A DNA stretch of 62,396 nucleotides, counting the filler, from Rhabdomonas costata (lineage: Eukaryota): the NCBI GenBank assembly GCA_019059605.1. It is 35 parts of 35 records of this genome, joined end to end, with 100 filler letters (N's around TTAATTAATTAA, not from the genome) between each part and the next. Parts side by side here need not be neighbours in the genome. Positions count along the whole stretch, not along the records: positions 21,434 to 23,119 come from JAHMHO010010673.1; 34 more parts are not named here. The stretch is one strand, 5' to 3'. Positions 1 to 40,307 of this stretch are shown piece after piece (the first letter of the stretch is position 1; each line of letters begins with the position of its first letter). Position numbers and translations under genes: made by a program. Under the pieces are notes generated by a model, which made no database searches, was not told the DNA's origin, and saw nothing but the letters and a program-made list of their open reading frames with translations.

Positions 1-1191
1 GGGTTTTGGTACATACTGAAATTAGAGAGGGGCGCGTACACATGCCTATGTGATTGTTTTGCTACACATCGCTTGCGCAAGCAGCCGTCCGGCTGTAGGC
101 CAGTGCGAGAGTTTGAGTATGTCTGTATGTCCGCCCACGCGGTTCAGGAGGAGGGATGCCTCCTTGTTGGGTCTTTTGTCTCTGCTGGTCATCCCCGTTG
201 GCTTGGCGATCTACGCGACGTACCGTACATGGAAGACGACGACGTCCGGACCCCAGTCCCTGGCTTAAAGGCTACAGAGAAGATTCGCGCTGCCATCTAG
301 GGGGGTGTCTCTCTTCCTCTCCAAAGGAAGGCAAAGGAAGGCCATTCCTTTACCTGCAAGTCTTTCCCTCAACCTGGCCCCGGTGTCGGTCCCAATTAAC
401 AGACAGGGTTGAAGCACATGCTTCGTTACGGCCGTTCCATGGGAATCGTAAGCCCCCTCCCCCGGAAAAATGGGTCCTTGGTGCATTCAGGTAATATTGT
501 TGCATGCTAGGTGATGGATTTCCTCCGTTCCCACCAGAGAGGCTAACCTGCAATAGCTAATGTTACTCTCGAACATCCGAAAAACATCGCAAAAAAACAG
601 TAGTTGACGCTTCGGAACTTCGGTGCATACGAAGTACATCGCTCTGTTGAAACGGGTTTCAAAGAGAGAGACTTTCTAATTTCCCTTAACCCCTGTTCGT
701 CCAAGTTGAAACATTTTGGTTCCTCCTGTTTCTACTCTCATTGTGGCACGGGCCATGTAATCAAGGAAGGCAATGCTTGGGCAGCTGTTAGCCCCGCCCC
801 GCTCCACCTCCACCACCTACAAGACCGGAAGGGCCGTGTTGATGGCGAGACCGGTTCTACTACTCCCGTCTTTCTTTCGGGCGTTTTTCAGGGGATGGGG
901 GGAGGGGTGGAGCCATTCATTATATCCCGTTTTGCTGGTACTTTCTGCGTCCAATGCCTGGACTCCTTTGCTCACAGCGCAGCCATGCGCCTGGTTGTCG
1001 CTGATTTGTGGCAAACCTTGGCGAACGTTTTTTTTCAATGGGACCGCTTTTCTTAGTGGGGGAGAAGGAGAGAAGGCTGTTCAGCTTTCGATGCATTTCT
1101 CTTCATTGTCCTACTCTTCTAATTTCTCTCTGTGCTGTACTACAAAATGGCAAGTCTGCACCTATCGTGCCCCCACTGCGTCGGTCTGCAT

Positions 1192-1550
1192 GATCTTAGG
1201 TGGACAAGTGTATTGGGGTGCCTTAAACGTTTAGCAGTGCTAAACGCTAAACGTTTAGGTCAGAATGCAAGGGCGAAGAGTGGTTCCCAGGAGATGGCAG
1301 TAAAAGGAATTTTAGTTAGTTTGGGTGCGAAGGCCAGCACCGCGAAGGCGAGTCCGCGGCGCGACCGGATTATTAACTACCTCTGTGTTAACTATCTCTA
1401 AGTACATAACTTTTAGCAAAATGGGGGTCAGGTATGCTCTCTTTTGACCCCTAGACAGACATTTTAATTTGATGGTTGGAAATTTGTGACCGTTTAGCGG
1501 TGCTAAACGTTTACCCCCAAAAAAAACTACAGGAAGCCCGATCTTAGGTG
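1192..1550. mobile_element. MITE-like insertion with 11-bp flanking direct repeat and subterminal inverted repeats
   Basis: GATCTTAGGTG at 1192-1202 and 1540-1550. Inverted repeat TAAACGTTTAGCAGTGCTAAACG (1224-1246) matches the reverse complement of 1491-1513 at 21/23. No convincing ORF. Confidence 0.55.
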
Positions 1551-1687
1551 ATGCACTTTTTCCCCACAACTTGCCAAAAATGTTTGGTGAGAAAAACCCT
1601 CATTTGCGCTGGGACGCATCGCACCCAACCAATCCTAAGGCAACCCCAGCAATTTCGGAGCGTGCACCAACAACACAACCCCACACC

Positions 1688-1787
1688 NNNNNNNNNNNNN
1701 NNNNNNNNNNNNNNNNNNNNNNNNNNNNNNNTTAATTAATTAANNNNNNNNNNNNNNNNNNNNNNNNNNNNNNNNNNNNNNNNNNNN
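1688..1787. other. Artificial contig spacer (first of 34): N44-TTAATTAATTAA-N44
   Basis: The identical 100-bp spacer with six-frame stops recurs about every 1.79 kb, giving 35 contigs of ~1,670-1,700 bp. Confidence 0.99.
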
Positions 1788-4700
1788 GTGGGGTTTGCTT
1801 TCTGCTTTTTCATGGGTGGTGTGAAAGCCTTCAAAGAGGGAAACCTGTAAATATTTTCCTGAGAAGGAAACTTTTATTGGACTGCGCACGGCGTACCGGG
1901 CAGCCGCCCTGGAGGTTGCCCCCTTGGCAGAAAGCCACGGGAGGAGGTCGTGGGCACCCCATGCTGACCACCGGGGCCCCCTTGGGGAACACCCGCCACA
2001 GGGTTGTCTGGGAGGTCTCCCAGGACTTTTCCACAGTGACGGGGTGGTACGGGATCACATTGTGTGGGCCACCAAGAAGCCTGCATGAAGACAGCGTGCG
2101 ATCAGGGAGCAGAGGGAATGGGTTGAGTAACAAGGACTGACATTTCTCCTCTCCTCCTTTCTGATGCCTATCTCGTCCACTCCCAAAAAGTTTTTCTTAC
2201 TCTCTCATTGCTGCACCTCAGCAGCATCCCTGTTCGGTGCTCCTGCTATTCCTGGCATATGCGATGGCATAAACATGACTGCCTCCAGTTTTGCTGTTTG
2301 GGCCTGCTCAGAAATACGGGAACGCCTGCTGCGACGGGTGAGATGGGAAGGCAGCTGCTCCTTCGGGAGGGGCCAAAAAAAAGAACTCATGTTCCGCGCA
2401 CATAAATAAAGCGGGCGAAGGGAAGAAGTAAACGCATAGTAGGTCACGGCTAAGCCGACGCTGCCCAGGCATCCAGCTATGCTGGTCATTGTAGTGCAGC
2501 CAAATATAAGCTGAGCGAAAACGCGAACCCAAAACCCGAAATTTTCAAAAGCTGACAGCTCGAGCACTGCACCCGGCCCCGGATCACCACGCTACGATCC
2601 TGAGCTCAAGGAAGTCTAAGGAACCCTAACGGAACGGGATGGAGTCAGGCTCAGCTCCCGATGAGTATCCATTCATGCACGCCGCGGGACAAAACCCCAG
2701 ACCACCACAGGAAGGGAGTGAGCAGAAGTGAGCCTAGACAGAGGTGCGACGGCTATGAAGGCTTGTGGTTCACATTTCTGACTTGAGAGTAGGATGCGAC
2801 AACACACACAGACCCAGCTCGTACGAAACAACGGAGCGGGCCCGCCTGGCACCAACACAGGCGCCACACACATTGTGCACTTGGCAAGGATGATCCTTTT
2901 CTGGGGAGTACTTGAGTCCAATTCCCCATGAGCTCCCAACTTTCGATGGGACATACACACAGAGAGGCGGCAAACCCTTTTCTGCTCCAGAGCATGACCA
3001 ACCCGCCGGGGCACTTCACCATGGTGATGGGTTCCGGGGGCCCTGAGCTGGTCAGCTGGATGATCGGGTGATTCCCCTGTGGGAAACGCACCGCCCAATT
3101 AGCCGCATCGGTCCTGTCTCAACTCGCCTCCCCCCAAAAAAAACGGTTGTCTGCGAAAGATCGGCACTATTCAGGCACAGGAGGTGATGATCTGCAACCC
3201 GTGGGCAACGCAGAAAAGCAATTTATTGCGTGCGATTCGTGAAACGGAAAATCAGGCAGCTGTTCATACACCAACGAATATACCCACCAACGATCATTAC
3301 ACTGCAACCCCATCGGAAAACGCATCCCTCTCTAACCTCTGCAGATTTCTGCTGAGCCCCAGCAAGCTTTCTGACTTTCGGATGTCCCGAAAAAATCTGG
3401 ATCAGTGACAGCTTAGGCGGAACGGATCACTCACCTCGTCAGGAGTATCTCAAAATCATTGCACCACCACACANNNNNNNNNNNNNNNNNNNNNNNNNNN
3501 NNNNNNNNNNNNNNNNNTTAATTAATTAANNNNNNNNNNNNNNNNNNNNNNNNNNNNNNNNNNNNNNNNNNNNTTGTTTGTGTCCTACCATCTGGCAGGA
3601 TCCAGGGTCAAGCATATGTCCCTGAAAAAGACGCCGATTCGTGTTCTTCGACAGAGCTCATATTGACCGATCAATGTTGTAGATAGCGCTGGATGGTATT
3701 ATTGAAGGGGTTGAGGGCGCGGATTTTAGAACTGAAGCTGATCTTCATGGACCAATGTGGACTGAGTCCAACCGAGGTGAATGGCACGTCCCTGCTTTCA
3801 TTGCAAGATCAACCGAAGCATAACCCAACCCGAGAAAACATTGATGAATTGTCACAATCAGTTGCTCAGTGCCCATTGTTCAATGCACGGGACCATTGAC
3901 AACGAGTGAACAATTAAACAAACGAGCTGACAGTAGTCTTTTGAACTGCTTTGAGTCTTTTGAACACCTAACCTTTCCTGTGGTGTGAACCTGTGAACCT
4001 GTAACCTGTGGCCCGGCTAAAGCAGTAAGGGCTCCTCGTGGAGTACCCGTCCAGATAACACTGACATTGGGAACCTCAGTGGCTACCAAGGTGTGTTCCG
4101 TGTTGTGGATAAGTTAATGTTGCGCTGTTTGCACAGTGAGGTGTGCATCGGACAGATGTTCCCGATGCCACCGAAACCATTCCACAACACACCACTTTTC
4201 ACTACTCCACAACGCAGTGAAGCACATGGTTCTGCAACACCCAGTCTCTTTTCCTCCATTTTCCATTGAGAAACGTCAGTCTCACGTGACTCTAAAAGGC
4301 CACTCTCACGACCCAAGTCCACAAAAACAAATTTCCACATGCTTCCTTGGGGGGTCGCGAGCAACGGGCCGCAAAACAAAAGACTGTGGGCTCTGGGAAA
4401 ATCAAGTATTTAAAGAATTTCATGATCAAGGAATCAGGAACGTCCATGACAGCACGAATTGTGAGGTCCCGAGTTCTGCCTCCCTGTGCGTTCGCGATTA
4501 CGCCGTTGGGAACCTCACCGCGACTCTCCTCACAGAGCACTCTGTCGTGGAAAACAAGGAAATTCAATCGCTCCCCTTTTTGCGTCCCCGTTGCTGAACT
4601 GACTTGCTCCCGTTTTTCATGTGTTTCAGTCCTCTGTCGGAGACTGTGCAGCTTGACTAACCACGGCGGGTACTGTAGACGCTGCGTACTACCGTGGGAG

Positions 4701-8831: not shown

Positions 8832-9412
8832 NNNNNNNNNNNNNNNNNNNNNNNNNNNNNNNNNNNNNNNNNNNNTTAATTAATTAANNNNNNNNNNNNN
8901 NNNNNNNNNNNNNNNNNNNNNNNNNNNNNNNAGAGCGGGTTAATCACCTTAGCTTGGTCATCAATGCTGAGCGCTTCCGGCCACCGATGGGCTAGCATGT
9001 ATCATCCTTCTCACATTGGACATCACACAATGGACACTTTACAGGTGAAAGCATAAGGTGGGAATTCGGTTCACACGGGAAGGTTAGTGATTTCCCAGGG
9101 AACGCTTTGTACCCTTAGGCCCCTTGTGTGTCTTTTTGTCGACGTTCGCTGTGCTCTGTCCTACTTTGCTCCAATTTCCCCATAATATCGCACACACAGT
9201 TGTTCTATTCTGTCTGCATTCACGTTTGCACTGCAATATGATTCTTCCCAACGTATTTTCGTCCGGGGAAGTTACCGACCTGACGCAGGGTCGATACATT
9301 CAATTCAACCCGCCCCTCACTCTTCCCTTCTTCTTCAACAGTAGTATTTTCCGTCCTCTCCCCCGTTTTGGTGTATTCAGCTTCACTGGGGTGACATTTT
9401 CTTGTGAAAGTC

Positions 9413-10591
9413 ATGGATGCACGTGGTAGTGTAAACATTGTTGGAATGCTGCTTCTTTTTCTCATTTCTGCGTGTTTTGCCCACTCGACTCTTGGACGTA
9501 CTGGACTAGCCACGGAAGCTGCTGCACCTCGTAATGGCTCTTTGTGTGCCACAGAGGCCACGTACACTCCTGAGAACCGATCCTCACTGTGTCCACTGAG
9601 TATGCCGTGTCCTTCACCTTGCCAGTCTTCCACCAAAGGGAAATACTTTACTCCTGTTCTCTACGCCCCTACTAACCTGAACGCTCCTCCTTCTCCAAGG
9701 GTCGCGCTTTTGATACCATACTTTGGGCCTCTGCCACGATGGTTTCCCTTGTTTTGCAAGACGGTGTCTTATAACCCAGGGTTCGACTGGTTAATTTTTA
9801 CCGAGAAGAAGTTCGAGGCGAACGAGTTTAAGCTTCCTCCGAACGTGATCATTCATGCTATGAGCATGCTGGATTTTTGTGGTTTGCTGGCGCAGAGACT
9901 GGGTGTGCGTCCAATTAATCGGTATCCCCCTAGGAAGGTGTGTGACACCCGGCCATTCTTCGGACTTCTTTTCCGCGAATACCTCGAAGGGTATGACTTC
10001 TGGGGTCACACGGACCTGGACATTTTGCATGGAAATATCAGCCATTGGATCACCCCCGAGGTTTTGCGCAACAATGACGTGGTCACGGTGTTTAATTTTC
10101 TCGCTGTGGGTGACTTCACGCTTTATCGGCGGAGCCCAGCGGTAGCTCGGCTGCCTTTCATGATGAAGGGGTACAGGGAGGCATTAAATGATGTTGCAAC
10201 GATCTACGCCCTTGATGAGTGGACAAACCGGAAGGTCTGCATGGCCAAAGTAATCCGTCGAGAGAGGGACCGTGGGGCGCTGAGGGTGTGGTCCGGCGCA
10301 GAGCCTTGGTCACCTGGATCTTTCGTGCAGCAAGATCAATACTACCCTTGTCAGAAGTTCCGCATCAACTGCATCACTACCATCCCCCCGAGGGTTCGGA
10401 TTTACTGGAGGCAAGGGCAGATGTGGCGCAGCGGACACCCCAACTTCCCAAGGAGCAGGCGCAATTTTATCATGTACTACCACTTCATTCGAACAAAGAG
10501 ATGGGTGACTGCCTCGTACAGCGAGAAGTTTCTTTCAGCGGAGCAGTTTTGTGTGAACGGATCCCATCACTTGTCCTTGACATGCCCCTGA
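9413..10591 (+). CDS. DUF6625-like putative glycosyltransferase, complete and intronless, with N-terminal signal anchor
   Basis: ~392-aa ORF. Hydrophobic N-terminus IVGMLLLFLISACFA, then LLIPYFGPLPRWFPLF...NPGFDWLIFT, KVCDTRPFFGLLFREYLEGYDFWGHTDLDILHGNI and C-terminal MYYHF, recalled as motifs of the bacterial DUF6625 family. DxD-like TDLD motif. Confidence 0.8.
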   Translation: MDARGSVNIVGMLLLFLISACFAHSTLGRTGLATEAAAPRNGSLCATEATYTPENRSSLCPLSMPCPSPCQSSTKGKYFTPVLYAPTNLNAPPSPRVALLIPYFGPLPRWFPLFCKTVSYNPGFDWLIFTEKKFEANEFKLPPNVIIHAMSMLDFCGLLAQRLGVRPINRYPPRKVCDTRPFFGLLFREYLEGYDFWGHTDLDILHGNISHWITPEVLRNNDVVTVFNFLAVGDFTLYRRSPAVARLPFMMKGYREALNDVATIYALDEWTNRKVCMAKVIRRERDRGALRVWSGAEPWSPGSFVQQDQYYPCQKFRINCITTIPPRVRIYWRQGQMWRSGHPNFPRSRRNFIMYYHFIRTKRWVTASYSEKFLSAEQFCVNGSHHLSLTCP

Positions 10592-20600: not shown

Positions 20601-21581
20601 AAACGCACTGGCATTTTGCTATTCGTGTATGTTTCACCCTCAACTTAATACGTTTGTACCGTATAGCAAATCCTGTCCTTTCCAACATCGTCTCGTGCAA
20701 GCGGAGGATTTTCTCAATCTCAATCGATGCAGTAACACTAAGAACGAAAGTGATGTTCAGCACCGCCCAAGCAGAAATACCGCCGAATAATACGGAAATA
20801 TGAATCTCACTTCTGCCGTACTGGAAACAATCTCAAGAATAATTGCACGATAGATCCACATCGGAATATTCCTGTCAGCATGAAACGACCAAGCATGGCA
20901 GGGAGAGCGGGGGGGGGGGCAGAGTCATTCCAAGATGACGCGGGCCCACACCCGTCCTGCCTAGCAGCTGCATTCAAACACACCAAAGGACGGGAAAAGG
21001 GCAGAAAACAGGAAAATGGTTAAAAACCTGCTGCTGAGGAACATCAGAGTCAGTGCCTCCGAGAGGCATTCGAAACTCCAAGAATCTGAAGCCCCCAATA
21101 GAAATGATGATGAGTCCACTGCCCTCACAAGCTCTGATGAAGCACACCGTGGGCTCGCGAAAGCGCAGACAAAAGACCACATAAAAACGGCAAGCACAGA
21201 ACGAATCGCTTCTGCAGCCACAACCATGTGATTCGGAGCTCTAGTGAGATGTTGATGCGCACTGTCGTGAAAAAGTGTTGGGCGAACTCTGCCTGCCTGT
21301 GCAACAATACCACAACCCCAAACACACCCACACNNNNNNNNNNNNNNNNNNNNNNNNNNNNNNNNNNNNNNNNNNNNTTAATTAATTAANNNNNNNNNNN
21401 NNNNNNNNNNNNNNNNNNNNNNNNNNNNNNNNNTTTTTGTGGGTTCAGCTACTCCGTGATTCTGTGATTCTGATGGACCTGGCACCCGTGGGGCAAAACA
21501 CTGGAGTGAAAAAATCAGAAAGTCAGATAAGTAATTTGACGGTTGACACAACGGTGGGGCGAATGTCCTTTATTGTCACAC

Positions 21582-22437
21582 CTGCACATTGTCCGCAGAG
21601 GATGCAGTCGGTGTGGGCCAACAGCTCCCCGTTCTGGGTGGTGGCATACTGGAAACCCTGGTCCTCCATGCTGGTCTCCAGAATGTGCATCCCTTGCTGG
21701 TCCGAGCACGCCCTCACACACCTGGTGCAAGCGACGCAGAGGTTGTTGTCTCGAATGAGGGAGTTCGAGCTCTCGTCAACGAGCGACCGCTTCTCCCAGC
21801 TGTTGAGGCGATCCAGGTCCTCCGTGATCCCCACTGGCACCACACCATACTGGCCCAGAGGAGCCATGACCTGCTTCAACGCCAGCTCGGCCTTCCCCCT
21901 CACGACCAACGAGTTCGTGGTCACGTGCATCTGGGGCGTGACCTTAGAGCAGCAGGCCAACTTGTACATCGACGTTCCACCTTCAGTCACGTGCACAGAG
22001 CAGACGCGGCATTTCCCAGCGGGCCTGAGAAGAAACAAATTATCACTGCGGCACCACACAGACGAACAAGCACACGGAAAGACAAGAACATCAAACACAC
22101 TTCAGCCGCGGATGGTGGCAAACGGTGGGAACAAAAATTCCGGCCTGACGGGCGGCGTCAAAGATCGTGCTCTGCGGTTCAGCAAAAACTTGCTTGTTGT
22201 CGATGAACACTTCGACCCGGGAAGTAACCGCCTTGGCGAGTTGCTCAACCTGCATTTGAGAGAATTTATGTGTGTGTGACCCAAATGCACCCCAAGGGGG
22301 GCTACACACACCGATGTTGAATGTTTGTTGTTTGTTTGTTGTTGTTGAACGGCCTGCTGATGAAAGACCTGTGTGATCCTTGAGTTCTTTGCAATGCACA
22401 CACCGAGGAGTGCTTTACCGCTACCGGGCCGGGTGTA
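21582..22437 (-). CDS. [FeFe]-hydrogenase-type (or NuoG/FdhA-type) N-terminal Fe-S relay, spliced, partial (exons ~22437-22369, 22249-22101, 22024-21582)
   Basis: VEVFIDNKQVFAEPQSTIFDAARQAGIFVPTVCHHPRLK|PAGKCRVCSV...LACC is a [2Fe-2S] domain. DESSNSLIRDNNLCVACTRCVRAC...DCILCGQCA is a 2x[4Fe-4S] domain. A 76-nt GT-AG intron (22100-22025) restores the frame. The H-cluster lies beyond the contig end, so it is not seen. Confidence 0.8.
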
Positions 22438-23385
22438 CTGCAACAGAATAAGTATTCTGCCCTGTATCTAATAAAACTTGAAACTGAAGTTTACACGTAT
22501 CTGCATCTTGAAATTCTTCACCGTCACCTACTTCTTGCTCACAATGTTCTCCTTTCGGGTTTCGGTACCTCAACCCACCGCCTGGGGCCAACTCCTGTCC
22601 CCGCGTCTGCTGCGGATATTCTGGCGGTGATTCCCTTTTGGCGTGCATGGCTATCCAATCAACCCCTCCCCTTTGGTTAGTTTTGGTCTCCCTTGCAGGT
22701 GGTCTTACCGTCCCCTTTTCGTATACACTGACAGTGGACATTCGGCAACTGTTTTTTCCAAACTAGAAGTATATACGTGGACGCTGGCCCCCTAAACGCC
22801 ACCTCTTGGGTGGGCAGTAAAAACCAAGCAGAGCTGTATGGGCTCTTTCATTGCCTAAGGCAGGCGCGTAAGTTCTCTCTACAGAATGAACCGCTGCGTA
22901 TTACGCACTTGCGAGGGAGTGGTCCGACTTCCTGTCGCCATCCCGCCTTTCTTCGCATTCTTCCACTCATATGGCGCACGACCCACTGTGAATCTCCATC
23001 GCCCTCACATCCTCCCATGGAAATGCTGTGGATGCGCTGTCCGGTTTGCACCAGCTCAAGCATCCCTTCCACCACACCCCGGTTTTGGCAACGTAACTCG
23101 TCTCACTCTCACAACACCCNNNNNNNNNNNNNNNNNNNNNNNNNNNNNNNNNNNNNNNNNNNNTTAATTAATTAANNNNNNNNNNNNNNNNNNNNNNNNN
23201 NNNNNNNNNNNNNNNNNNNGGGTTGTGGGTCTCTTCCAAATCGCCATTTGAATCCTTGTAAATTCAAGTTCCGTCCAAAACCTAGTGCTCCAAGTTCCGT
23301 TCAAAACCGTGTGATAACCTCCTGTCTGCCATTTTTGGTGTAATCCCACCCACACATGATGAGAGCAAGCGGCCTTTGTTTCCAG

Positions 23386-24106
23386 GAGGAGAAGTACAAA
23401 AACGTGGCTTTTGGGAGGTGTCCTCGAGTGATGTGCTCTGGTCACTCCGTCCTTCCCGTGGGGCAGTCCGACATTCTACGTGAAGCGAGTGTAAAGATCT
23501 TCTGCGGCAAGTGCAACGACATTTACTATCCGCGCTCCTCTCGGCACAAAAGTGCTGCGCCCGCCCACCGACTCACTTTCTTGCGCGGATGTTTACTTTT
23601 CGAACTTCGGCATTTTGGCAGTTGCTGACTTTCCACGAATCTGCACCTTTCGTCTTCACACGTACTCATTATAGGCAGGGACAGTTGCATGACGCGGTCG
23701 TTGGGCGCGTCGTGTGGAACGTCTACCCTCATAAATCAGAATGTGAGCTGGGCATCGGCCGACATCGGAAAACCAGATCAGCATGCAGCAAACGCACGTT
23801 CCAGTATTCAGACGGAAACTCTCAGGATTTTGGGCCGCTCTGCGCTCCACCGCTGAAGATTCTCTCCAGAGGACTACAGCAACTCCTGTAAGACCCGTAA
23901 GTTCGCCTCCAACCAGCCTGATAGATGCTTAATGTTTTCTATAATCATTGTTCCTCTTTTGCGTGTTCAACTGTTCATTCATTGAATTTTATATTCAGGT
24001 TTAGACGGCGCATTTTGGGGAACAACTTTTCCTCACCTCTTCCTCATGACCTTCCCGGAACATGTGGTCTCACGGTCCAAGTACATCTACGTGCCCAAAA
24101 TTTACG
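23386..24106 (+). CDS. CSNK2B: Casein kinase II regulatory (beta) subunit, 2 internal exons (23386-23551, 23999-24106)
   Basis: EKYKNVAFGRCPRVMCSGHSVLPVGQSD...VKIFCGKCNDIYYPRSSRHK|SLDGAFWGTTFPHLFLMTFPE...YVPKIYG: diagnostic zinc finger and DGAxxGT motif. Confidence 0.95.
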
Positions 24107-25376: not shown

Positions 25377-26691
25377 ACCGACCATCCTTGGTGTGAGCAA
25401 AGGTGGAGGAATCCAAGTGATGGCCAGGATAGTCCTTATCAAATCGCCGCGGAAGGCTCTCGATGAAGTCCTTCAGCGCCTTGTTCTCTGATGCTAGCCT
25501 CCGGGCCTGCTCTTCGGCTTTGAGGATTTGTTTCACGTCCGGGAAGGCTTCAAGGGCAAGTGCAGGGCGCATGTCCAAAGTCATTGGATCAAGGAGCTTA
25601 ACCTCGGCGGCGTTGTTGGAGAGCACAGCGAGCATGAGGGAAGTCCTGCCCGTACCTGGGTGCGAAATATGCGAAATGTTCGCAGAGGCCCCTGCCCCAA
25701 GACGCTGCTGAACCCTCGAGGTCCTGCCAAGGTGGGCTCCCTCGGCGAGGAGAGTGTAGCCTGTGGCGGAGCATGGCTCATCAATGGCGGGCGGACATGG
25801 TGATGAACTGTTCTAGGTCCACGGGATTCGAGGCAGGAAGCTTCCATGGCAAGGTCAAGGGATCTCACGTTGCGCCAGTGAGCGGTTGAACTCCAACTGC
25901 GGCAGGATCAGAGAGGGGTCTGCCAGGATGGATGCAAAGTCTGCGCCAAACTCCACCAGAAGAACCCCGATGAGCACCGATCTGACGGCATAGGCAGCGC
26001 AAAGCGGTGGGGCTGCGCGGAGGTGAGCCATGCCCCGCACTGGAAGACCCTGCTGGCATTCCACGCTGCCGAACACGTGGCGGTTGGGCTGACGAGTGCA
26101 GAGAGGACTCAGCCTCAGCTTTAGCAACGCCGAATCCCTCAGGGTTTGCGTGGTTTTGCAGAAGCCATTTGACAACGTCGCACTTCTTGAATTCAATCGC
26201 GAGAAGCAGCAAGGTTGTATCGTCCCCACTGGTAGGGTGCTTGACCACCTTGTCCGCCCCAAAGGCCTGCACAAACTTTGCCAGCTTTGGAAGCTGGCTC
26301 TCCTGAATGGCCGTGGCAAGCTCCTGGTGGGGAAGAACGATCATCGCGATGATTTCCTGGGCGTCCTTAGACGAAAGGGAAGAGTCAAAGCAAGAGATGC
26401 AACTCTCTCCTTGGCTGTTGACAATCATGGGATCGCAACGGCCGGAGTCCAACAGAAGCTGAACAACGGCCTTGTGTCCGCGGTAGCAGGCGACATGCAG
26501 GGGGGTGTTGCTATTGCTCACACGGAGCTTCGGATCTGCACCCCACTTCAGGAGGTGCTCAACAGCAGCCTCATTCCCTGCCCGAGCGGCGGTGTAAAGC
26601 AAGGTCGTGCTCACATCACCATCCAAAACAATTTCCATGTTAGCGAGCTCAGGATATGAGCCAAGCAAGGCGACCAATTCAACTGCCTGGT
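25377..26691 (-). CDS. Ankyrin-repeat protein, partial, multi-exon
   Basis: Repeats TLLYTAARAGNEAAVEHLLKWGADP, NTPLHVACYRGHKAVVQLLLDSG, TLLLLAIEFKKCDVVKWLLQNHANP, PPLCAA...LLVEFGAD and (after gtgaga...cag) GRTSLMLAVLSNN. Confidence 0.9.
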
Positions 26692-37813: not shown

Positions 37814-38880
37814 CTGCACGACATCTCGGGCGTGCACGTCGATCACAATCAGGGTTCCGACGCACTGCCTCTGCAGGCGGGTCAGGCTGCCCTTAACCAG
37901 CTCCACGGTGCCCTCAATCTGGGTGACGTAGGACTGGAGGTACCCCGAGAGGGCGTCCGGGGACTCGCGCAGCGCGGACAGGGCCTGCTCCACCTCCATC
38001 GTCCACACCACCTGGTCGATCACCACGATACACATAGCCGGGAACTCGAAGTACCACTGCGCCCGGGTGGTCTCCCAGTAGGCCTTCTGGCAGACCTGTG
38101 AAGCAGTGACACACAAACACACACACACACACACACACCGCATTTTCGGCATGAGCAGGTATGAGAATGACTGCCAGTTGCTTGGGTGTTGAGCGGGAGG
38201 TATGCGAGGTATGCAGATGCAGACTAATCGGGCTGATGCAAAAGTTGTCTGACTATTTCACGCCCAGTGAGCTTCTGCTCTGCTCCTGTGCCCGGAGTTG
38301 GCTGGCTGGTGTTGTATGTGACTGGTCGTGTTTGGCGTTTTTTAGAGGCTATAAGTGCAAAAAAAAAAGTTGGGAAAAATCAAAGCGCGAAATCGCGGGG
38401 TATCGGAAAATTCATAACGAAGCTCGTAGATGTCGTAGAAATCGCCTCAGGGGACACCACTATGACTCTCGGGGTGGGAAGGGGGAAGGACGAGACAGGG
38501 TCCTGCAGAGAGCGAGTGTGTGTGTATGTGCGTGTGTGCGTGCGTGTGTGGAACTTCACCTTGAGCTGATCCTTCACCGTGCGGCGCATCATGGCCTCGA
38601 TCTGGCTCAGCCAGCTCTCCACGTTGCCTCGGGCCTGCACGGGGGCGCTGAAGGGCACCCACTCGTCCTCCCCGCTGATCATCCCCAGGATCTCATGCGT
38701 GCTGCCGGGCTTGAACCGCAGCTCCTTCATGTTGTCAAAGCACTTGCGGAGATGGGGCTGGACGGCGACAGGGTTGCGGACGTCAGACAGGATCTGCAGA
38801 AGCTCGTCATTGCTGAGGAAGTAGAACCGCGGGAAGGCGGCACGCTTGGTCTCCAGATAATCCTCGAGCTTCTTTTGAAC
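37814..38880 (-). CDS. Axonemal dynein heavy chain (linker/DHC_N2 region), 2 exons (38880-38560, 38095-37814)
   Basis: VQKKLEDYLETKRAAFPRFYFLSNDELLQILS...VQPHLRKCFDN...GNVESWLSQIE|...LIVIDVHARDVV are canonical axonemal (inner-arm-like) DHC motifs. Confidence 0.96.
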
Positions 38881-40307
38881 CTTGTGTGGGGACATGGCAA
38901 GGGTGTGAAGGTGAAGGAGCATATATATGGAGAGGAACTTGACAAAAACGTCTCGCTCTAATGAAGATCTGCTTTCTGGTTTCCTGTTTTTTCCGTTTGG
39001 CATAGAGAAATCCAGGGTAGCGATATCGACCAGGTGCAATTCATAAATGACATTTACGGAATGCCGTTTGTTTTTGGACACAACTTTTCGGCAAGCAAGC
39101 AAGGAGAAGGTCAAACCGATAAAGAGTTACTCTGAACACTTCGACCCGAGAGCCCGCCCACTTCACTGGATGCCAAAAGGAAAAAACAACAANNNNNNNN
39201 NNNNNNNNNNNNNNNNNNNNNNNNNNNNNNNNNNNNTTAATTAATTAANNNNNNNNNNNNNNNNNNNNNNNNNNNNNNNNNNNNNNNNNNNNGTTGGGGG
39301 GGGATACAGGTCCCCGACTCATAGCGTAGCAGGACCGCATCCGCAAAGCGAGTGTCGTCGTCGTGGAGCGGTCATGCAGATAGCGGGCCTGCTTGGCCAG
39401 GAGGTCCAAGGCCGCATTGCCCAAAGCTTTCACAACCCCCTTGGCCGCCGCCGCGGTGTCATGCGCCTTAACATTCTCCATGATAGGGGCATCCAGACGG
39501 AGAGTCCACTGGTGAAGGAACCGGCGCACCACTTCACGCTCAGGGCAGCGGAAAACCCGACTGGGCGGGCCAAGACCCCAAGATCCCCGAATCTGCATGG
39601 CACAAAAAGAATCGGTGAGCACCAAGGAAGGTGGAGGCTGGAAGCCCGCCACGAGGGTAAGCGCCACAAGCTCGCAGTGGGTGGAACTCCGCGGCTGAGA
39701 GACGTGGGTCGGGAAGGAGGTCGAGGAATGCCACGGAGAGCGGCCGCACCACCGCCTACGTTCAAAGAACCATCCGCCCAGACCGTGTTCCGCGTGGTGG
39801 GGTAGTCTTCCGGAGAATAACAAATTTTGCCAACGTCGTTTTTTATTTTCGTTTTTATTATCCGCCGGCGTTTTCAAATTCTTTCTGGGCCTGGTCGATC
39901 TCAATCTTGACTTCGACCGGGATCTCTTTCGAACGTTTGTTGGTGTTGGTATTTTTTGGGTTCCACATTGTTGTCTTCTCAGGTGGCGCCAATGGACCCG
40001 TAAATCGCCTTCTGAGGAGTATAAATGGACCAGCGCCCAGAAATTGATGCGTCAAGAACCGACTGGAAGACCAGATGGCAGCTGCAGTGAAAGAAAGTCA
40101 AAATCCACCGAGTGAGTGAATAACGGCAACCACTGCAAAGTGGGTGGGTAGGCATTGTATATGCAAAACTGCCACGTCCTTTCGCCTGGAACTCGGCCAA
40201 CAAAAAGGAGGAATTCACTGAAAAGAAAGCCACGTCGAGCAACTTCATGACGAGATAACGAGATGGATAATCAAAAGCACACTGTCATAATTGGGTTCCA
40301 ACCTAGC

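Follow-up and report, generated by a model that had tools for sequence, protein, structure and literature searches.

Does a short, intron-split iron-sulfur module in the assembly of the flagellate Rhabdomonas costata belong to an [FeFe]-hydrogenase of the host nucleus, and if so, how might a respiring euglenid use such an enzyme? The window, that is, the whole stretch of 62,396 nucleotides analyzed here, comprises 35 unlinked contigs of about 1.7 kb from the R. costata assembly (G000; 97,249,925 bases in 104,289 contigs), separated by spacers of the form N-TTAATTAATTAA-N, and the piece in question is the contig at window positions 21434-23119 (G000:C10673, L010). The reading that we favor, with a probability of roughly 0.7, is that the gene encodes a fused euglenid [FeFe]-hydrogenase that would interconvert NAD(P)H and H2 with no need of ferredoxin, most likely releasing excess reductant as H2 in the anoxic cytosol. 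The closest protein is P0001, the R. costata protein RCo029411 (EukProt EP00906), a HydA-CysJ fusion of 1175 aa, and the window gene is designated copy 2 of the three copies described below.

Four sequencing runs, X1, X4, X6 and X14, were aligned to the window contig; X4 and X6 come from two studies and have no RNA label on record, and X14 is the single run recorded as RNA. The features of the window gene, followed by those of three other pieces, are listed with their window coordinates. The dynein and CK2-beta exons were considered as gene neighbors and dropped, each lying on its own contig, unlinked to the hydrogenase piece.

Exon 1, 33 nt, on L022 (G000:C64482): start codon and GT donor; found as a loose end of the spliced X4 and X6 contigs with a single occurrence in G000.
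22250..23119, minus strand: 3' part of intron 1; the acceptor CAG ends at 22250.
22101..22249, minus strand: exon 2, with C55 and the first half of the [2Fe-2S] domain (Pfam Fer2_4, E 6.5e-6), covered by spliced contigs.
22025..22100, minus strand: intron 2, 76 nt, GT-AG; joint "skips 76, CT..AC" in X4 and X6.
21582..22024, minus strand: exon 3, completing the [2Fe-2S] domain (C66, C69 and C85), with a linker without a His-ligated cluster, and seven of the eight cysteines of the 2x[4Fe-4S] domain.
21501..21581, minus strand: intron 3, 81 nt, GT-AG, phase 1; joint "skips 81, CT..AC" in X4 and X6.
21480..21500, minus strand: the opening 21 nt of exon 4, which include the codon of the eighth [4Fe-4S] cysteine (C211); supported by aligned pieces and by loose ends in X4 and X6.
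21434..21479, minus strand: foreign sequence closing the contig, which lacks a GT donor and probably reflects a chimeric join.
38383-39126, minus strand: dynein heavy chain exon (PF08393), own contig.
23368-23553, plus strand: CK2-beta exon (PF01214), own contig.
25868-26689, minus strand: ankyrin-repeat frame, own contig.

Elsewhere in the window (9395-10588, plus strand) there is an intronless frame of 398 aa with a match to DUF6625 (E 5.7e-44).

Introns 2 and 3 are both skipped by single contigs of X4 (depth 189) and X6, that is, in two of the four runs aligned and in two studies, and for this reason we read these contigs as transcripts of the window gene. The spliced X6 contig shows three third-position differences, the X1 contigs over the gene are unspliced, and X14 contributes a 134-nt exact match within exon 3. 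The statement of an earlier note on this DNA that spliceosomal introns interrupt the module is thereby borne out for two GT-AG introns; the coding extent that it gave, 21582..22249, holds as part of the gene, and the 21 nt of a further exon at 21500-21480 had been overlooked. The bounds of exon 2 are identical in copy 1 (L046), and the intron before exon 4 is displaced by one base among the paralogs, being in phase 1 in copies 1 and 2 and in phase 0 in the third copy (L003:60-61 and window 21581 vs. L011:609-610, 1080). From the start of exon 4 onward, the X4 and X6 transcripts continue towards the H-cluster domain; the contigs reach 193 and 255 nt further downstream, respectively, and no more, and an exact-pattern search of G000 for the direct downstream continuation of the transcript gave no matches. 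A candidate for the next exon, L003, which has the same intron phase and residues, was rejected: it belongs to copy 1, being identical to P0001 and showing synonymous differences from the transcript.

The contig end itself calls for a separate explanation. Positions 21434-21487 are 91% like G000:C57218 and have a depth of 137 vs. about 12 in X1, and the foreign tail shares an 8-nt word with the exon and recurs elsewhere with different flanks. Because of this recurrence, and because exon 4 is whole in copies 1 and 3 (L003 and L011), a chimera is a simpler explanation than an intron at 21479; the junction is probably a chimeric join at the shared 8-nt word, likely an amplification chimera, and possibly a non-conventional euglenid intron with a non-GT junction. 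Several X1 contig ends carry G/T-rich, primer-like tails.

The spliced model of 215 aa contains the four [2Fe-2S] cysteines (C55, C66, C69 and C85) and eight [4Fe-4S] cysteines (C157/160/163/167 and C201/204/207/211), so that both ferredoxin-type motifs are intact, as had been noted, with the eighth cysteine contributed by the overlooked exon. The motif HxxxCxxCxxxxxC of the His-ligated cluster, which had been reported missing between the [2Fe-2S] and [4Fe-4S] domains, is likewise absent from this model. Pfam recognizes Fer4_10 (E 1.1e-4) in the module in addition to Fer2_4 (E 6.5e-6), the best NCBIfam match of exon 3 is FeFe_hydrog_A6 (E 2.5e-19, compared with 9.5e-8 for NuoG), and its best PDB sequence matches are the [FeFe]-hydrogenases 7p5h, 7q4v, 8a6t and 1c4a. 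Among the 32 protein matches of exon 3, the top one is P0001 (87%) and the second is another hydrogenase fusion (40%). The downstream loose ends of X4 and X6 encode the same ten residues as P0001 216-225, just after the last Fe-S cysteine; the transcripts thus extend into what in the R. costata paralog is the stretch ahead of the H-domain, which upholds the assignment to an [FeFe]-hydrogenase-type module, and in these reads they lead to the hydrogenase linker and to no molybdopterin domain. Exons with the H-cluster motifs TSCCPAW, MPCxxKxxE and ExMACxxGCxGGG are present in the genome, and three of them (L004, L002 and L005), which by their identity to P0001 appear to belong to the window copy, share with P0001 the motifs TSCCPxW, MPCxxKxxE and ExMACxxGCxxG. 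We regard the window gene as almost certainly that of an [FeFe]-hydrogenase. An assignment to Nar1/IOP1 was rejected, given the presence of the [2Fe-2S] module and the non-degenerate H-cluster motifs of the copies. A Nar1/IOP1-like exon separate from the three hydrogenases does exist in the assembly (L001:640-867; G000:C9533, minus strand), with ACPGW and CFDKKLE, motifs that we take to be of the Nar1 type, where the hydrogenase copies have TSCCPAW and MPCxAKKDE.

The domain order of P0001 is Fer2 - 2xFer4 - Fe_hyd_lg_C - Fe_hyd_SSU - Flavodoxin - FAD_binding_1 - NAD_binding_1, and the protein scores 501 bits against TIGR02512, above the group A cut-off of 406. The window model is identical to it at 180 of 215 residues (84%). 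In the assembly, the Fe-S module and the CysJ half are each present three times, and the copies sort into tiers of identity to P0001. Nine contigs (L046, L003, L009, L006, L028, L024, L029, L025 and L030) are about 100% identical to it and represent copy 1. At 70-92% lie the window module, the H-domain exons L004, L002 and L007, L005, and the CysJ exons L031 (88%), L036 (90%) and L033 (59-86%, with one exon at 59%). The third tier (58-76%) consists of L011, in which the same His-less module is followed across two introns to the first H-domain residues, and the CysJ exons L032, L038 and L026, which are closer to P0033; among 13 candidates scored, no H-domain exon of this tier past its first residues was retrieved. 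The three hydrogenase copies in the genome are probably all fused. Of the 26 matches of the CysJ search in G000, ten come from other diflavin proteins, with 30-43% identity. Four contigs (L023, L027, L035 and L037) carry long uninterrupted CysJ-like frames, 30-36% identical to P0001, that are probably PNO or other diflavin reductases, or contaminants. The metagenome contig L043, which is intron-bearing, has an intron position in common with L024/L029.

A tree was built from 51 N-terminal modules, after removal of a row for which no module end was found. In it, the window module is the sister of P0001 (100/99); both belong to a five-row clade that also contains L011, P0033 and P0034 (100/100), and this clade falls into a 32-row clade of eukaryotic flavin-fused enzymes (100/100) that excludes both the FdhA outgroup and the hydrogenases with a His-ligated cluster. 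In another, quick and unrooted tree, the euglenid clade may be sister to a Stygiella/Archamoebae group, with an unstarred SH-aLRT value of 90. The module does not branch with the 75-kDa subunit or FdhA, the outcome that the earlier note had set against a hydrogenase. Its claim of a nuclear, intron-bearing host gene, as opposed to bacterial contamination, is supported. The euglenozoan host that it had suggested is supported, beyond the R. costata paralog, by nine matches to paraflagellar-rod genes in G000 (none in 14 control genomes) and by a long, expanded euglenid-type 18S (L012:855-2839, G000:C1946; 62% GC), of which 1842 nt cover model positions 4-1116 only. Because the nine contigs of copy 1 are about 100% identical to P0001, the host is the osmotrophic euglenid R. 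costata or extremely close to it.

How far the missing His-ligated cluster characterizes such fusions was addressed by two censuses. In the first set (120 proteins listed, 22 with an incomplete module and unscored), the motif occurs in none of 60 CysJ-fused and none of 17 flavodoxin-fused proteins with complete modules, and in all 21 without flavin domains. In a wider, independent set of 131 further proteins (43 unscorable), it is absent from 12 of 12 CysJ-fused, 4 of 4 flavodoxin-only and 2 of 2 FAD-only proteins, but it is missing as well from 19 of the 70 hydrogenase-like proteins that have no flavin domain, some of which are fragments or have other inserted domains. The lack of the cluster is fixed in the flavin-fused clade but occurs outside it too: as a marker of fusion, its loss held in the first set and failed in the wider one, and its absence from the window gene is a family trait and no peculiarity of one gene. 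The cysteines of the clusters and of the H-cluster are kept in 49-50 of 50 aligned fusions, and the reductase residues S958, C1128 and E1173, which we take to be the P450-reductase catalytic triad, in 47, 43 and 46 of them. The NADPH-phosphate position is occupied in P0001 and in 19 of the 50 aligned fusions by His and not by Arg, the residue that presumably binds the 2'-phosphate of NADPH in P450 reductases; because of this replacement in P0001, NADH is possible as the electron donor instead of NADPH.

These data bear on three other readings of the gene. The module could be the N-terminus of a NuoG/75-kDa subunit of complex I or of a formate dehydrogenase alpha subunit, given that the other 30 of the 32 exon 3 matches are FdhA/NuoG-type proteins at 27-33% identity and that the NuoG model does score, but we give this practically no credence: the two best matches are hydrogenase fusions, the transcripts proceed into the hydrogenase linker, the tree sets the module apart from FdhA with full support, and the NDUFS1 of R. 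costata is a separate entry, RCo032243, in the portion of Table S8 of PMC8219788 that we consulted. Both features by which a NuoG, NDUFS1 or FdhA would be recognized, the His-ligated motif and a molybdopterin-oxidoreductase domain, are missing. There is a very slight chance that the gene comes from a contaminating eukaryote that is not a euglenid, a source suggested by a second, plant- or green-alga-like 18S in G000 (L013, placed by eye). This sequence (G000:C25815:30-1145), an 18S with an inverted end, is foreign DNA in the assembly. Against such a source, the nearest protein sits in the R. costata protein set, the clade is far from the hydrogenases of Chlorella and Chara, and an environmental relative, L042, has a spliced-leader-like end (268-294), with TTTTTTCG located 18 nt before the ATG and occurring once in 4108 nt; TTTTTTCG is the 3' end of euglenid spliced leaders (leader sequence as given in the part of PMC8219788 used here). 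Finally, the window copy could be an unfused, ferredoxin-dependent hydrogenase whose CysJ half was lost or never present. No single contig or read joins the window module to its own H-domain core or CysJ half, so that no physical link to a CysJ exon is seen, and the His motif is missing also from the 19 non-flavin proteins of the wider set; we nevertheless consider this improbable, since the second-tier CysJ exons L031, L036 and L033 match the divergence of the window copy from P0001, and its sister P0001 and close relatives P0033 and P0034 are all fused. From the matching identity tiers and the position in the tree, a CysJ-fused window copy appears very probable.

Taking the gene as that of a fused hydrogenase, we compared it with known systems. 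It shares with RCo029411 the positions of the introns that flank exon 2 and of the one ahead of exon 4, as well as the lack of the His cluster, but the two are paralogs, different genes, with exon 2 just 70% identical in DNA. In the examined part of PMC8219788, RCo029411 is seen only among the tips of a supplementary tree, which stands one page after that of cysH. The CysJ-fused [FeFe]-hydrogenase 2 of Stygiella incarcerata (P0035) is 47% identical to P0001, and the fused hydrogenases of Stygiella, Trichomonas, Pygsuia, Pelomyxa, Trimastix and Paratrimastix have the domain order of P0001, no His cluster and no targeting peptide; the euglenid sequences form a clade of their own apart from them. 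Such protist enzymes are predicted to be cytosolic and hypothesized to make H2 from NAD(P)H (PMC4989108 and PMC10703272, each in the part consulted), and the database matches extend the fused type to Cantina, Leptophrys, Mastigella, Rhizomastix, Barthelona, Carpediemonas and diatoms. The hosts of the Stygiella/Trichomonas type are anaerobes with hydrogenosomes or reduced organelles, usually with ferredoxin-linked hydrogenases in addition, whereas R. costata has cristae, complexes I-V and rhodoquinone, survives a month of anoxia, and oxidizes pyruvate by PNO only (from the sections of PMC8219788 used here). We consider it a facultative anaerobe with a full respiratory chain and not a hydrogenosome-bearer. 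CpI of Clostridium pasteurianum and the electron-bifurcating HydA proteins (1c4a, 7p5h, 7q4v and 8a6t) likewise have [2Fe-2S] and 2x[4Fe-4S] domains before the H-domain, but keep the His-ligated cluster in the linker (seen in the alignment for 7q4v), unlike the window gene, and work with ferredoxin or HydB/HydC partners in place of a fused diflavin module. The Fe_hyd_lg_C fold is common to hydrogenases and Nar1/IOP1, and in the passages of PMC10407231 available, Nar1/IOP1 is the only protein of this type reported in Euglena gracilis.

For the maturases HydE, HydF and HydG, the earlier note had proposed a search of the assembly. All three are present as exon-sized, intron-split matches, HydG on L015, HydF on L016 and L017, and HydE on L044 and L045; each exon matches its own NCBIfam model best, and all fall below the whole-protein cut-offs, as is to be expected of single exons. 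The part of Table S8 of PMC8219788 that we used lists HydF (TargetP 0.86) and HydG (0.90, annotated as a thiamine protein) as predicted mitochondrial, in the category "Unknown"; this predicted mitoproteome table has no hydrogenase row, and P0001 is not among its "hydrogenase" rows. By eye, copies 1 and 2 start with about 22 residues of low charge ahead of the Fe-S domain and have no presequence-like extension, with three basic and two acidic residues among the first 25 of copy 2, so the predicted location of the maturases does not match that of these copies. A search of G000 for the first exons of copy 3 gave copies 1 and 2 alone (three matches). The short N-terminus suggests that the window enzyme may be cytosolic. 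P0034, a Logan protein of the euglenid-like clade, has a longer, basic, presequence-like N-terminus (residues 1-40, by eye), which suggests that some fusions of this clade may be mitochondrial. On present sequence evidence, we think it likely that the window enzyme is matured and active.

In the mechanism that we propose, electrons would pass from NAD(P)H to FAD, FMN, the [2Fe-2S] cluster, the two [4Fe-4S] clusters and the H-cluster, a path drawn from the established chemistry of diflavin reductases and CpI-type wires. FAD would take a hydride from NAD(P)H and FMN would hand single electrons to the exposed [2Fe-2S] cluster, from which the two [4Fe-4S] clusters would deliver them to the H-cluster for the reduction of protons. 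The tethered FMN domain would stand in ferredoxin's place, the His-ligated side cluster thereby becoming dispensable, and without oxygen, surplus reductant would leave the cytosol as H2. For NADPH at -320 to -370 mV, and with general background values for the midpoint potentials, the computed equilibrium H2 pressure is 66 to 3300 Pa; venting would therefore work where neighbors hold H2 low, and uptake in H2-rich pockets only. PNO, the only pyruvate-oxidizing enzyme of R. costata according to the part of PMC8219788 consulted, yields NADPH, and five PNO rows stand in the predicted mitochondrial set of that source. Because of this supply, and because no unfused hydrogenase that could act as an internal H2 source was found in G000, where every copy retrieved looks fused-type, H2 evolution seems a somewhat better guess than uptake for the direction in vivo.

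The same fused enzyme might run in reverse, taking up environmental H2 and reducing NAD(P)+ or cytosolic acceptors. Reduction of NADP+ becomes favorable above about 0.07-3 kPa H2, the title of Smutna et al. (2022) gives the cytosolic Trichomonas vaginalis enzyme, the one homologue studied biochemically, a possible role in H2 uptake, and the part of PMC12483993 at hand speaks of an "H2-oxidizing, cytoplasmic Fe-hydrogenase". Trichomonas, however, has an internal source of H2, whereas the R. costata copies retrieved all look fused-type, so that uptake would need H2-rich surroundings; we judge it unlikely as the main direction, though not to be neglected. Smaller still is the chance that the gene is a transcribed but non-functional relic, or that its product is an apo-protein never given an H-cluster and at most a flavin reductase. 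The differing predicted compartments of maturases and hydrogenase would fit such a fate, as would the barely detectable H2 of a diatom with HydA and without maturases (PMC10407231, in the part used), but the frames are open and the ligands conserved, the codon differences between exon 2 and its counterpart in copy 1 comprise 18 synonymous and 15 non-synonymous ones, and three copies are kept together with all three maturases.

An H2-venting fused enzyme in R. costata would be of an enzyme type already known from anaerobic protists; what is new is a member in a lineage for which no hydrogenase description was found, in a literature search with subscription journals, bioRxiv supplements and stray supplementary tree tips outside its scope. 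The word "hydrogenase" has zero occurrences in the main texts of PMC8219788 and PMC7052976, and "euglen" has none in PMC11216029. New from the window piece itself are the splicing evidence for another copy, the count of three tiers and the His-cluster census. For Euglena gracilis, the one euglenid studied biochemically, the parts of the sources consulted report a lack of HydA (PMC10407231) and fermentation to wax esters (PMC6856725); the latter also mentions hydrogenosome-like organelles in anoxic relatives, from ultrastructure only. A full hydrogenase set in a free-living, culturable, respiring euglenid would bring one more major lineage of eukaryotes into the H2 economy of anoxic sediments, and one organism would serve two questions, the direction of HydA-CysJ where no other hydrogenase appears to be present and cytosolic maturation with maturases predicted to be mitochondrial. 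A single-chain NAD(P)H-to-H2 enzyme would also be of biotechnological interest. More speculatively, and with the odds somewhat against it, there may be an overlooked ferredoxin-free H2 metabolism of euglenids, in which PNO-derived NADPH would be vented by the HydA-CysJ family in cells whose mitochondrion respires fully, and mitochondrial HydEFG would export the di-iron subcluster or load a mitochondrial copy, and which might extend to uncultured euglenids (L042 and L043). If this is true, Euglenozoa would have their first H2-producing system, and the export of an H-cluster could be studied in a culturable model.

Finally, several of the database matches (P0098, P0102, P0105, P0109-P0112, P0119, P0127 and P0153) have unusual architectures, among them WD40-hydrogenase-flavodoxin fusions in Anaeramoeba, a PFO-hydrogenase fusion in Blastocystis sp. 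Blastoise, and a 4122-aa protein with ten matched stretches.
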